Assembly (NCBI RefSeq): GCF_003018255.1
Contig: NZ_CP027440.1
DNA: 64,000 bases
Source: Escherichia coli
Lineage (GTDB): Bacteria > Pseudomonadota > Gammaproteobacteria > Enterobacterales > Enterobacteriaceae
Direction: 5' to 3' (one strand)
Shown here: piece after piece, positions 7,626 to 55,381 of the stretch
Position numbering within the stretch: position 1 is the stretch's first letter
Layout of the letters: the number at the start of each line of letters is the position of its first letter
The notes under the pieces: generated by a model
What the model was told of the DNA's origin: nothing
The model's input: the letters and a program-made list of their open reading frames with translations, nothing else
The model's database searches: none
Position numbers and translations under genes: made by a program

Positions 7626-10435
<2,810 letters not shown>

Positions 10436-10644
10436 AATTCACCCTTCGTCTTGCGTTGATTTTCTAAGCATGGCGCTCAATTTAACCTTGACCCCAACAT
10501 ATTTACAGAATATTACCCGCCGTGGTTAGCGAAAGCTGGCATTTGTTTTACTTTTTAGCCGCATAAAGTCAAAATTAAGAATCCGTTACGGCTTTCTGAA
10601 AATCTTCAGCGGACCGGCGAGTATACCTGAAGAAAGGACGTTAG

Positions 10645-11622
10645 ATGCTTTTAGCTACGGCACTGTTAATTGTTGGTTTACTTTTGGTCGTTTACAGTGC
10701 CGACCGCCTGGTTTTTGCCGCGTCTATTCTTTGCCGAACCTTTGGCATCCCGCCGCTAATCATCGGCATGACGGTGGTCAGTATTGGTACATCGTTACCA
10801 GAAATCATCGTCTCGCTTGCCGCGTCTCTGCACGAACAACGCGATTTAGCCGTTGGTACAGCCCTCGGCTCAAACATTATCAATATATTGCTGATCCTCG
10901 GTCTGGCTGCGCTGGTTCGTCCTTTTACCGTCCATTCTGATGTTCTACGCCGTGAATTACCCTTAATGTTGTTGGTCAGCGTGGTGGCCGGTTCCGTACT
11001 CTATGACGGACAACTTAGTCGAAGCGATGGTATCTTTCTCCTCTTTCTGGCTGTGCTATGGCTGCTGTTCATTGTTAAACTTGCACGTCAGGCTGAACGT
11101 CAGGGGACTGACAGCCTGACCAGAGAGCAGCTTGCAGAGCTGCCTCGTGACGGCGGATTGCCCGTCGCGTTTTTATGGCTCGGCATTGCGCTTATCATCA
11201 TGCCAGTGGCCACGCGGATGGTGGTTGATAACGCCACGGTGCTGGCGAATTACTTTGCCATCAGCGAGTTGACGATGGGTCTGACGGCAATTGCTATCGG
11301 AACCAGCCTGCCGGAACTGGCAACCGCAATAGCGGGGGTTCGCAAAGGTGAAAACGACATTGCTGTCGGAAATATCATTGGCGCAAACATTTTTAATATT
11401 GTCATCGTATTGGGTTTACCCGCGCTGATAACGCCAGGAGAGATTGATCCACTGGCGTACAGTCGTGACTACAGCGTGATGTTGCTGGTGAGCATTATTT
11501 TTGCGTTGCTGTGCTGGCGGCGCTCCCCGCAACCGGGCCGTGGTGTAGGGGTATTATTAACTGGCGGATTTATCGTATGGCTGGCGATGTTGTACTGGTT
11601 ATCGCCAATACTCGTTGAATAA
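10645..11622 (+). CDS. yrbG: Na+/Ca2+ exchanger (CaCA) family inner membrane protein YrbG
   Basis: 325 aa; two internally repeated halves with alpha-repeat motifs (GTSLPE..). Confidence 0.88.
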   Translation: MLLATALLIVGLLLVVYSADRLVFAASILCRTFGIPPLIIGMTVVSIGTSLPEIIVSLAASLHEQRDLAVGTALGSNIINILLILGLAALVRPFTVHSDVLRRELPLMLLVSVVAGSVLYDGQLSRSDGIFLLFLAVLWLLFIVKLARQAERQGTDSLTREQLAELPRDGGLPVAFLWLGIALIIMPVATRMVVDNATVLANYFAISELTMGLTAIAIGTSLPELATAIAGVRKGENDIAVGNIIGANIFNIVIVLGLPALITPGEIDPLAYSRDYSVMLLVSIIFALLCWRRSPQPGRGVGVLLTGGFIVWLAMLYWLSPILVE

Positions 11623-48882: not shown

Positions 48883-49146
48883 ATGAAAATCAAAACCACT
48901 GTTACTGCATTAAGCGTACTTTCTGTTCTCTCTTTCGGTGCATTCGCTGCCGACTCCATTGATGCTGCACAAGCACAAAATCGTGAAGCAATCGGGACCG
49001 TATCCGTAAGTGGTGTGGCGTCTTCGCCAATGGATATGCGTGAAATGCTGAACAAAAAAGCGGAAGAGAAAGGCGCAACGGCCTACCAGATTACTGAAGC
49101 TCGTAGCGGTGACACCTGGCACGCTACGGCTGAACTGTACAAATAA
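48883..49146 (+). CDS. yhcN: Small periplasmic stress-induced protein YhcN (DUF1471/YdgH-BhsA family)
   Basis: True start MKIKTTVTALSVLSVLSFGAFA (signal peptide; Shine-Dalgarno GAGGT; ATG at 48883), 87 aa. Confidence 0.88.
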   Translation: MKIKTTVTALSVLSVLSFGAFAADSIDAAQAQNREAIGTVSVSGVASSPMDMREMLNKKAEEKGATAYQITEARSGDTWHATAELYK

Positions 49147-49173: not shown

Positions 49174-49197
49174 GCCCCCGGTTCGGGGGCTTTTTTT
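49174..49197 (+). terminator. Intrinsic terminator after yhcN
   Basis: GCCCCCGGTTCGGGGGC followed by TTTTTTT. Confidence 0.8.
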
Positions 49198-49200
49198 GCG

Positions 49201-49473
49201 CTAATGACGAACATTAAAACGCAAATGCCCTTCCAGCTCTTCCTCTGCCTCATCAAACAGCAATATTAACGCGCCAAAACGGCGACGCGTTTTCTCTCCC
49301 AGATGAACAAATTCAATCTCAAGTGGTAGCGGCAGGACATCGTTCATTAACACATCCCATAGTGAGTCGAGATCGCGTACCTTATCTTTCGCCAGACCAA
49401 AGGCTTGGCTGAAGTCGCGATAAAAATCCTCCTGACTCTCAATCTCATCAAAATCAAAGGTATAAATATTCAT
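49201..49473 (-). CDS. yhcO: Barstar-like (barnase inhibitor family) protein YhcO
   Basis: 90 aa, [47 protein letters not shown]...; acidic, barstar-family pattern. Confidence 0.85.
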
Positions 49474-49533
49474 CTGTTGCCACCGTCACGTTTCACGGCG
49501 AGTTCTGCCGTTCATCGCTAAGTATAGCCATGA

Positions 49534-49561
49534 AAAAACCGACGCTTCGGGCGTCGGTTTT
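49534..49561 (-). terminator. Intrinsic terminator after aaeB (end of the aaeXAB operon)
   Basis: AAAAAACCGACGCTTCGGGCGTCGGTTTT: hairpin with U-tract when read on the minus strand. Confidence 0.75.
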
Positions 49562-49564
49562 GAC

Positions 49565-51532
49565 TTAACTATCGGTCAACGCATGTTGATACTTATGGAG
49601 CATCCCCGCCAGCCGATGAACCGGTTCCGTCACCTGCGGTGGCGCTTGCCAGATGCGTAGCTTTTCCTGGTAGATTTCAAGTTCTTCCAGCAACTGGCCA
49701 AAGTACCGACGACGTTTATCATCGCTACGGGCAGATATCACATGGTCTGCTGTGCGGCGCATTTGTCGGTGAAACGCCGATAAATCCTCGTTAACCGGGA
49801 TCGGCGCATCACGCAGGCGCTGGTGCGCGATAATCATCGTCAGCGCCAGGCGAAATTTCGGCAAATCCCCTGGGAACTTATTCATCAGCAAAAACAGCTG
49901 CTGATAAAGTGCCGGGAGGTGATTCTCTTTACGACGTGCCACATTGGTAGTCATCGCGGAAACAGCGGCAGAAACAAACTGATTAAGCAGTACACGTCCA
50001 GTCCTGTCGCGCGATTTATCCCGCACCAGCAAAATAACGGTGAACGCGAGCACACAGCCGACGATTTGCCCTAATGCGCTGTCGAGAAACTGACTGAAAT
50101 GGAAAGTCATCGGGTTATCCAGCACGATAATATTTATGGTGCTGGCCAGCGCCCCCATCGAGCCCAGTCGCCGTTTCTGTACTTCTATACCGAGGAAAAA
50201 TCCCAGCACTGCCAGGCTAATACACAGCAATAACATGCTTTGTTGGGTATTAGGGATAATCACCAAAAAGTAGAGCAGCCCTAACGGCAGCGCCGCCAGC
50301 GTCCCATAGATAAAGTCGATCGCCACCATGCGTGGATTCGGCAAACGCATTGCCAGTGACGTCACGACCGCAATCATCACCATTGCACCACTGCCGGAAG
50401 TCCAGCCCGTCCACAGCCAGAAAAGCGTCCCCAGAATGCAGGAAAGTGTGGTTCGCCAGAAGTTAACCATCGCATGATGACGTTCGGCTGACTCTACTTT
50501 GACTTCCGGTTCGCCTTGCAGGATCTCTTCTTCAGTAGCGTTGATTTTTGTGTTACTGATAACGCCGCGCTTGAGAAGCTGATAACGCGTTGCCGCCGCG
50601 ACCCAGCTATAAATGGTGACAGGCGTTTCCCGTTCCCCGGTCCAGGCGATAACTCTCCGCAGGCGTTTGAGCTGCTTGTGGACGTCCTGCGCGGTTTCTA
50701 CCGGCGTGTCAAAAAATTCGCGGAAAGTATCAGTGATCAATTCCGGGCGCGTATTCTGAATAAGATAAGTTTCGCAGGATTGGGTAATCAGCGTCAGCGA
50801 TAGCGTATTGATCGCTTTTAAACGTCGATTGGCCCGCGCCCAGCGGGAAGATTCCATATTCAGGTTGCTGCGCATACCTTGTAACGCCGTGGTGCGTCGC
50901 ACCAGATCGCCCCAGGCTTTATCGACAACTTCACCATCGCCATGTTTGATACAGAGTTGCATTAATTGATATTGCGCGACCAGCAAACTTTCCAGCTCTC
51001 GATCCACTTCTTGTTTGATCGATCGCGGAGAAAAGAGCAAATCCGCCATAATCGCACACACAATACCGATAACGATCTCGCTACAACGTTCGACGGCAAA
51101 CTGCGGCGTAAGCAATGGTTCCGGCTGAATGGTGATCACAATGATCAGCGCGGTATAACCGGCCAGCCCCCACGCATACGAGTTTTCTATTCGTACCAGC
51201 GAGGATATCCAGGTACAAAAACCGGCCCAGATACAGCACACCAGAATCATCAATAATGGTGCGCGGATCATCGCAATGATGATTACCAGTCCAGCAATAC
51301 AGCCAATAAATGTGCCGATGATGCGCAAAAAGCCACGATAGCGAATAGCGCCAGAATACGGTTCACCTCCCGCAGCAAAGGCCGGACCGGCGGCAACAAT
51401 CGCCGCTGTCAGTACCGCCCAGCGTGGCGTTTCCAGCTGGAAGTGAAAGCCAACAAACAGCGCCAGTACAATGGCGGTCGCCAGTTTTACCGCAAAGCGA
51501 ATATGTTGATTAGCAATGGAGAAAATACCCAT
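49565..51532 (-). CDS. aaeB: p-Hydroxybenzoic acid efflux pump subunit AaeB
   Basis: 655 aa multi-pass membrane protein, [46 protein letters not shown]... Confidence 0.93.

Positions 51533-53920: not shown

Positions 53921-55381
<1,461 letters not shown>

Follow-up and report, generated by a model that had tools for sequence, protein, structure and literature searches.

The orphan barstar-family gene yhcO of Escherichia coli is very probably the inhibitor gene left over from an ancestral barnase-barstar operon

Within the 64,000-nucleotide stretch of Escherichia coli DNA analysed here (the window), yhcO occupies positions 49201..49473 on the minus strand and encodes 90 amino acids plus a stop codon from an ATG start, under the RefSeq name 'barstar family protein'. 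The sequence GGTGG at 49480..49484 (minus strand), 6 nt 5' of the ATG, is its likely Shine-Dalgarno element. The upstream neighbour is aaeB (49565..51532, minus strand; Pfam FUSC, E 5e-163), which is separated from yhcO by a gap of 91 nt where relatives carry genes for an SSADH-type dehydrogenase and a barnase. Beyond aaeB follow aaeA (HlyD-type), aaeX, the divergent aaeR (LysR) and then, just past aaeR and on the same strand as yhcO, tldD (53921..55366, minus strand; Pfam PmbA_TldD domains), which served as a synteny anchor, and yhdP. On the downstream side lies the convergent gene yhcN (48883..49146, plus strand; Pfam PF07338, YdgH/BhsA family), labelled 'peroxide/acid stress response protein YhcN' in RefSeq. 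ORF calls, Pfam and RefSeq agree on these assignments, including the reading frame at 49201-49473 and the neighbours, yhcN and aaeXAB, that had been named in a preliminary description of this DNA.

Two hairpins flank the gene. An intrinsic terminator for aaeB, read from the sequence as a GC-rich hairpin followed by a T-run (AAAACCGACGCCCGAAGCGTCGGTTTTTT; 49533..49562, minus strand), sets aaeB apart from the yhcO promoter and is conserved in the loci of Escherichia, Klebsiella, Citrobacter, Enterobacter and Salmonella; it was absent from the output of a consensus terminator scan of the window. Between the convergent yhcN and yhcO lies the yhcN terminator, the hairpin GCCCCCGG-TTC-GGGGGC (49174..49190, plus strand), to which the terminator scan assigns a T-run on the plus strand; the minus strand has no T-run, and the hairpin is possibly bidirectional as a terminator.

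The locus is almost invariant within the species: a 501-nt probe running from the end of yhcN through yhcO into the end of aaeB found a match in 5,425 of 5,426 complete E. coli genomes, and 5,423 of the 5,426 matched over 80% or more of its length, with 95-100% identity and the neighbours yhcN and aaeB unchanged. yhcO belongs to the core genome, fixed at a single locus and inherited vertically.

Profile, fold and motif all support the preliminary claim that YhcO has the hallmarks of a barstar. A profile search, which might have rejected the family assignment, returned a match to Pfam PF01337 (Barstar) above threshold (38.6 bits against a gathering score of 23.4; E 1.1e-9), with YhcO residues 1-81 aligned to profile positions 1-85 of 96; Barstar is the sole Pfam domain, and there is no DNA-binding domain. 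YhcO is one residue off PDB entry 2cx6 ('Hypothetical protein yhcO', deposited as 'ribonuclease inhibitor Barstar') and matches the Salmonella structure 5f4c (E 1.3e-44), and its AF2 model (pLDDT 95.7) superimposes on 2cx6 with a TM-score of 0.99. Against barstar chain 1brs_D the model gave a TM-score of about 0.80 and an rmsd of about 2.0 A, against most barstar chains in barnase complexes 0.77-0.83 and 1.9-2.6 A, and against four shorter barstar chains TM-scores of 0.70-0.79. YhcO has the three parallel strands and four helices in ~90 residues that make up the alpha/beta fold of barstar, together with the DxxxD motif of helix 2, the adjacent tryptophan and the acidic residues of helix 4. NCBIfam holds no model for YhcO or for the barnase-barstar pair of Serratia, and the PADLOC and PHROGs libraries gave 0 matches for YhcO or the Serratia barnase. 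yhcO is already a known and annotated member of the family with two crystal structures, and its published label is 'predicted barnase inhibitor'; in the open literature we found no paper naming yhcO together with barstar, no functional study of yhcO/b3239 or of an enterobacterial barnase, and no interaction or phenotype data. What is new here is the evolutionary reconstruction and the recognition of a selection-maintained orphan with a partly remodelled interface.

YhcO shares fold and length with the barstar of Bacillus amyloliquefaciens (1BRS, 1A19, PF01337), and barstar D35, W38 and D39 correspond to D36, W39 and D40 of YhcO, and barstar E76 and E80 to E75 and E79, but overall identity is only about 20%. 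Peripheral barnase contacts of barstar (Y29/Y30-G31-N33 and T42-G43) are not retained: where barstar has Y30-G31, N33 and T42, YhcO has K31-V32, D34 and M43, and it carries one additional residue after position 43. The two also differ in that the E. coli genome is without a barnase gene and inhibition by YhcO is only predicted.

The partner that E. coli lacks is present in more distant relatives. An HMMER search of 1.84 billion representative proteins yielded 111 relatives of YhcO, and in the genomic context of six full-length homologues (38-45% identity) the barstar gene lay immediately 3' of a PF00545 'Ribonuclease' gene in all six cases; two of these contexts read yhdP, CN-hydrolase, tldD, RNase, barstar. 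Because the window also has tldD and yhdP near yhcO, this suggested positional orthology. In a scan of one genome per species, comprising 80 loci with 10-kb flanks probed by tblastn with the proteins of the window and with RNases, two architectures split cleanly by taxonomy, with 41 paired loci and more than 40 orphan loci sharing the anchors aaeB, tldD and yhdP. Orphan loci have the order yhdP, tldD, aaeR, aaeXAB, gap, yhcO, one or two copies of yhcN, argR and mdh, and none of them (>40) has an RNase gene within 10 kb of yhcO. This architecture is found in all sampled Enterobacteriaceae (among them Escherichia, Salmonella, Citrobacter, Klebsiella, Enterobacter, Lelliottia, Buttiauxella, Cedecea, Kosakonia, Trabulsiella, Siccibacter, Yokenella and Pseudocitrobacter) and in Erwinia mallotivora (Erwiniaceae). 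The paired architecture is found in Serratia, Yersinia, Edwardsiella, Enterobacillus (Hafniaceae), Xenorhabdus and Regiella: the barstar gene begins 4-24 nt 3' of the RNase gene, and its product is 50-57% identical to YhcO. Upstream, the paired loci of Serratia and Yersinia have aaeR and aaeXAB, and in Xenorhabdus-type genomes (loci L001-L004, L083 and L085) barnase and barstar come directly after tldD. The preliminary description had looked to comparative genomics for a toxin gene beside yhcO, and one does sit beside its aaeB/tldD-linked orthologues in Yersiniaceae, Hafniaceae and Morganellaceae.

Judged by their sequences, the RNases of the paired loci are true barnases that look functional. 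Their identity to Bacillus barnase is 51-56%, K27, E73, R83, R87 and H102 do not vary among them, and the hydrophobic leader at every N-terminus suggests that they are exported. Current annotations call them 'ribonuclease', 'ribonuclease N' or 'ribonuclease Ba', each with a barstar family protein. The barnase-barstar operons of Serratia, Yersinia, Edwardsiella, Hafnia, Xenorhabdus and Proteus are positional orthologues of yhcO that share its locus, its orientation and its -10 element, but they keep a predicted secreted barnase and the interface F-G-x-N-L-D-A-L-W-D-V-V-T-G, and E. coli differs in both. The cognate barstars are about 20-30% identical to that of Bacillus, so that conservation is much higher in the enzyme than in the inhibitor. 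In Candidatus Regiella insecticola, the barnase gene (locus L079, 9541-10000) encodes NHY in place of the catalytic DHY found elsewhere and has no stop codon at the usual place, and in this endosymbiont the enzyme may be decaying. On the other side of the pair, barstar is followed in paired loci (for instance L053, 11192-12343, and L062, 11265-12416) by yjgA (DarP) and pmbA and not by yhcN, argR and mdh, which places a rearrangement breakpoint between the two groups directly 3' of barstar.

The preliminary description had also stated that no barnase-type partner lies near yhcO, and this absence extends from the window across the orphan loci, and yhcO appears as an orphan across E. coli. Within the 64 kb, tblastn with B. 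amyloliquefaciens barnase and RNase Sa found no barnase-type gene (best E 0.32), and three enterobacterial barnases matched nothing at E <= 1e-4. Five enterobacterial barnase genes gave 0 matches by blastn (word size 11) in the 5,426 complete E. coli genomes, a search that would miss genes below roughly 65-70% DNA identity and is not a rigorous exclusion. By tblastn, no Enterobacteriaceae barnase was matched in 72,556 plasmid records, where matches were confined to Bacillus, Clostridium, Proteus and two other non-enterobacterial genera, and 50,697 phage records gave 0 barnase matches. The two Proteus 'plasmid' records that carry barnase in PLSDB are in fact 4-Mb chromosomes. Among the 120 closest relatives of the Serratia barnase in a set of 5.8 billion proteins, no named entry belongs to Enterobacteriaceae; the named entries are Yersiniaceae, Hafniaceae, Budviciaceae and two labelled Pseudomonas. 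A cognate barnase-type RNase encoded elsewhere in E. coli genomes or on mobile elements, and neutralised by YhcO, could be harboured in divergent PF00545/BECR domains such as the C-termini of Rhs or CdiA proteins, and Zhang et al. associate Imm-Barstar not only with Tox-Barnase but with Ntox21 toxins as well (PMC3482391). However, the empty searches of E. coli genomes, Enterobacteriaceae plasmids and phages, the named entries among the closest barnase relatives and the lack of an RNase gene within 10 kb in orphan loci all weigh against such a partner, and we consider its existence very unlikely.

Upstream of yhcO the orphan and paired loci have a promoter signal in common. A sigma-S-type extended -10 element, GCTATACTTAG (49518..49528, minus strand), can be read about 45 nt 5' of the yhcO ATG, and its core, [G/T]CTATACT, occurs just 3' of the aaeB terminator hairpin in 15 of 18 inspected loci across genera, where it precedes whichever gene comes first, be it dehydrogenase, barnase or yhcO. 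This core matches KCTAYRCTTAA, the extended -10 consensus of sigma-S. In E. coli EDL933 yhcO is strongly RpoS-dependent (PMC2907692), a dependence that the predicted -10 element GCTATACTTAG fits; we infer the promoter from its conservation and from these published expression data, and the assignment is a prediction. yhcO is also activated by LldR (PMC10272880) and induced by a rapid acid shift (PMC2270276). The LldR boxes of the gSELEX paper (8/14 matches each) fall at about 49321-49337 and 49388-49404, inside the yhcO coding sequence and not upstream of it.

What lies between this promoter and yhcO differs among lineages. Yersinia has, after aaeB, a 490-aa aldehyde dehydrogenase, then barnase and then barstar; in Citrobacter, Enterobacter, Buttiauxella, Cedecea and E. 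mallotivora, 29-60 nt separate the end of an orthologous dehydrogenase from yhcO, a spacing that points to clean excision of barnase. Two of these dehydrogenases, from Citrobacter (L013) and Yersinia (L062), were scored against TIGR01780 (SSADH), and each exceeded the cut-off. The gap from aaeB to yhcO is 91-175 nt in Escherichia, Klebsiella and Salmonella, which have also lost the dehydrogenase; it is fully gone in Escherichia, Klebsiella and Pseudocitrobacter. Serratia has lost the dehydrogenase and kept barnase, with a short relic of the dehydrogenase 3' end remaining, and a comparable relic lies between aaeB and yhcO in Salmonella arizonae, so the dehydrogenase was lost independently in different lineages. 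These 3'-end relics (...GAAGTGAAAAC...CTGCAT-like) are located at about 9900-9960 in locus L014 and about 9430-9470 in loci L053 and L056. The dehydrogenase of Yersinia pestis NCTC5923 (L075, 7848-9316) is split into ORFs of 377 and 104 aa and is probably a pseudogene; barnase and barstar are intact in this strain.

We also looked for a remnant of barnase beside yhcO. The gaps of 29-175 nt contain only a short GGTGG/ATGGAG element, which resembles the last codons of barnase doubling as the ribosome-binding site of barstar; the GGTGG/GGAG element is placed equally in orphan and paired loci, and in the latter it is made up of the last barnase codons, but it is too short to count as evidence of a remnant. 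Replacement of barnase by aaeRXAB was rejected, since Serratia and Yersinia have both aaeRXAB and barnase-barstar.

In a neighbour-joining tree the 44 orphan sequences formed one clade (184 of 200 bootstraps), with the Serratia barstars as its closest paired relatives; the monophyly of the orphans indicates that barnase was lost once. Together, gene order and phylogeny suggest the following history. The ancestral unit appears to have consisted of a sigma-S-type promoter after the aaeB terminator, an SSADH-type dehydrogenase, barnase and barstar; a single deletion in the common ancestor of Enterobacteriaceae and Erwinia mallotivora then removed barnase, and Escherichia lost the dehydrogenase later, so that the promoter now abuts yhcO. 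yhcO is very probably the surviving inhibitor half of that ancestral barnase-barstar operon, and E. coli would retain in it the last survivor of a three-gene sigma-S-type operon for an SSADH-type dehydrogenase, a secreted barnase and barstar.

The preliminary description had offered, as one possibility, that yhcO is a remnant of a lost toxin-immunity pair. Synteny with PF00545 barnase supports the lost pair; the gene itself is not decaying, being under purifying selection. By pairwise Nei-Gojobori estimates, restricted to pairs with dS of 0.1-1.5, dN/dS among orphans had a median of 0.145 (pooled 0.149) and among paired barstars a median of 0.104 (pooled 0.124); synonymous sites are saturated between genera (pS 0.78-0.84), and none of the 44 orphan sequences, which come from more than 15 genera, has a broken reading frame. 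Purifying selection acts on orphans no less strongly than on barstars with a partner, and a decaying relic is excluded. To the idea that yhcO is a functionless leftover that has merely not decayed, and is transcribed only through the promoter inherited from the operon, we give almost no credence. The partner gene is gone, the literature holds no yhcO phenotype and the peripheral interface is relaxed, as such an idea would have it, but the selection analysis all but rules it out: dN/dS stays near 0.15 with between-genus synonymous sites saturated, no orphan frame is broken, the gene is missed in a single E. coli genome and many residues are invariant. Dehydrogenase and barnase, moreover, were cleanly deleted, yet yhcO was spared in every lineage. 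An acceleration after orphaning was considered and rejected: relative to Morganellaceae and Hafniaceae outgroups, orphans look about 1.3-1.4 times more diverged than Yersiniaceae barstars, but the ratio for TldD is equal.

Selection has acted unevenly across the protein. D36, W39, D40 and E79 are invariant in both clades, and E75 is invariant in orphans (n=44) and present in 95% of paired sequences. Paired barstars have F31 (100%), G32 (97%), N34 (100%) and T43 (97%), with A37 in at least 97%, whereas at the same sites orphans have K or Q at 31, V at 32 (100%), D at 34 (86%), S at 37 (98%) and variable residues at 43, followed by a one-residue insertion; P48 is present in 98% of orphans and variable in paired genes. 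In orphans the C-terminal half varies less than in paired sequences, with R64, R65, G67, L69, L71, L72, F73 and E75-E79 all at 100%. At 14 positions homologous to the barnase contacts of barstar (1BRS), the paired clade had 0.51 bits against 0.91 bits for the rest of the protein, and the orphan clade 0.92 against 0.85 bits, so that the orphan interface is no more conserved than the rest; the difference of these differences is 0.47 bits, with a permutation p of 0.017 that is indicative only, as the sequences are phylogenetically non-independent. By these alignments, the electrostatic core of the binding site is frozen, and the periphery is in part relaxed and in part re-fixed.

On the best-supported reading of its mechanism, YhcO would be a small acidic cytoplasmic protein that still acts as barstar does: the D36-x3-D40/W39 helix and the E75/E79 patch would plug the basic active site of a guanyl RNase of the barnase type. 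Expression would fall mainly in stationary phase and in acid or lactate stress (through sigma-S and LldR); without an enzyme of its own, the protein would offer standing immunity of relaxed specificity against the barnase-family RNases of neighbouring bacteria. That YhcO serves at present as such a retained immunity we put at close to, if slightly under, an even chance; the whole statement, joining the ancestral-operon origin to standing immunity, we hold to be somewhat likelier true than false. Against immunity speak the altered peripheral contacts, the absence of barnase from the Enterobacteriaceae plasmids and phages searched, and the position of yhcO as a fixed core gene outside any variable immunity island. 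In addition, we know of no route by which enterobacterial barnases with Sec-type leaders would reach the cytoplasm of a neighbour. In the survey of polymorphic toxins, barstar-type immunity is tied specifically to barnase-like toxins, some of which travel by T2SS, T6SS or other gamma-proteobacterial routes (PMC3482391). E. coli survives the toxicity of Bacillus barnase only with co-expressed barstar, and the field treats the species as lacking barstar (PMC8403359); chromosomal yhcO is hence not protective under those conditions, in which the sigma-S-dependent gene is probably barely expressed. This toxicity is indirect evidence that points against efficient protection by YhcO at its native expression.

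The main rival to standing immunity is exaptation, in which the surface of YhcO was remodelled after the loss of barnase and then frozen for a different partner, such as a basic or nucleic-acid-binding protein of the cell itself or an RNase of another fold, for example a BECR-type toxin, with YhcO as a stationary-phase regulator or RNA mimic. We regard this as possible but doubtful. It would account for the fixation of V32, S37 and P48 in orphans where paired barstars have G, A and variable residues, for the more conserved C-terminal half, and for selection as strong as on paired barstars in a gene that has no barnase and shows no acceleration beyond that of TldD. Regulation by RpoS, LldR and acid likewise puts yhcO among the general stress genes, and E. 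coli is unprotected from cloned barnase. However, this regulation was perhaps inherited from the ancestral operon, as the same -10 element precedes the Serratia barnase, and our literature searches gave no partner, interaction or phenotype for YhcO. The key barnase-binding residues, moreover, are invariant, for which a ligand of the same kind is the simplest explanation; D35 and D39 of barstar are reported, in the work of Schreiber and Fersht, to cost stability. In its more specific form, which we likewise think unlikely, YhcO would have been re-tuned, with positions 31-34, 37 and 43-48 changed and several of them then fixed, into a sigma-S-controlled inhibitor or nucleic-acid mimic with a new target, which could be an endogenous RNase or RNA-binding protein of stationary phase or an injected non-barnase toxin of the BECR fold. 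If re-tuning did occur, yhcO would represent an immunity protein recruited into core stress physiology.

With the Imm-Barstar and orphan immunity genes of polymorphic toxin systems (PMC3482391) YhcO shares its protein family and a logic by which an immunity gene without a linked toxin could guard against the toxins of others. Immunity genes of polymorphic toxin, CDI, Rhs and T6SS systems, however, stand in variable cassette arrays, whereas yhcO occupies one core locus that is not beside Rhs, CdiA or T6SS genes; unlike these delivered toxins, its ancestor would have been a simple pair of secreted enzyme and inhibitor. Nor does yhcO resemble a type II toxin-antitoxin system, in which the toxin is intracellular and the antitoxin is labile, usually DNA-binding and encoded upstream, since its ancestral partner would have been a leader-bearing, secreted RNase encoded upstream of the inhibitor. 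yhcO offers a natural experiment on the fate of a very tight inhibitor once its target vanishes, and the barnases of Serratia, Yersinia, Hafnia and Proteus form a defined panel of natural partners for the question of YhcO immunity. For laboratories that use barnase as a lethal marker, it means that the E. coli host has a chromosomal barstar homologue expressed in stationary phase.

Several minor observations concern individual loci and sequences. A tandem pair of yhcN genes lies 3' of yhcO in most Enterobacteriaceae (loci L013-L049, about 10330-11000), and a single yhcN is found in the sampled Escherichia, two Citrobacter amalonaticus assemblies and one MAG. yhcO fragments on tiny contigs assigned to Corynebacterium lipophiloflavum (L037, 241 nt, 98% identity to E. 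coli YhcO) and Hydrogenophaga intermedia (L044, 422 nt, 70% identity) are almost certainly enterobacterial contamination of those assemblies. A Salmonella sequence of 90 aa (P0132) runs out of frame in its mid-section and returns to frame near the C-terminus, and three metagenome proteins of 137 aa (P0029, P0031 and P0032), in which the first 80 residues of YhcO are fused to a LytTR segment, look like artefacts of sequencing, assembly or gene calling. In Kosakonia cowanii (L048, 10231-14590), an insert of ~4.3 kb separates yhcO from the yhcN genes, and the yhcO match spans residues 1-77 only.
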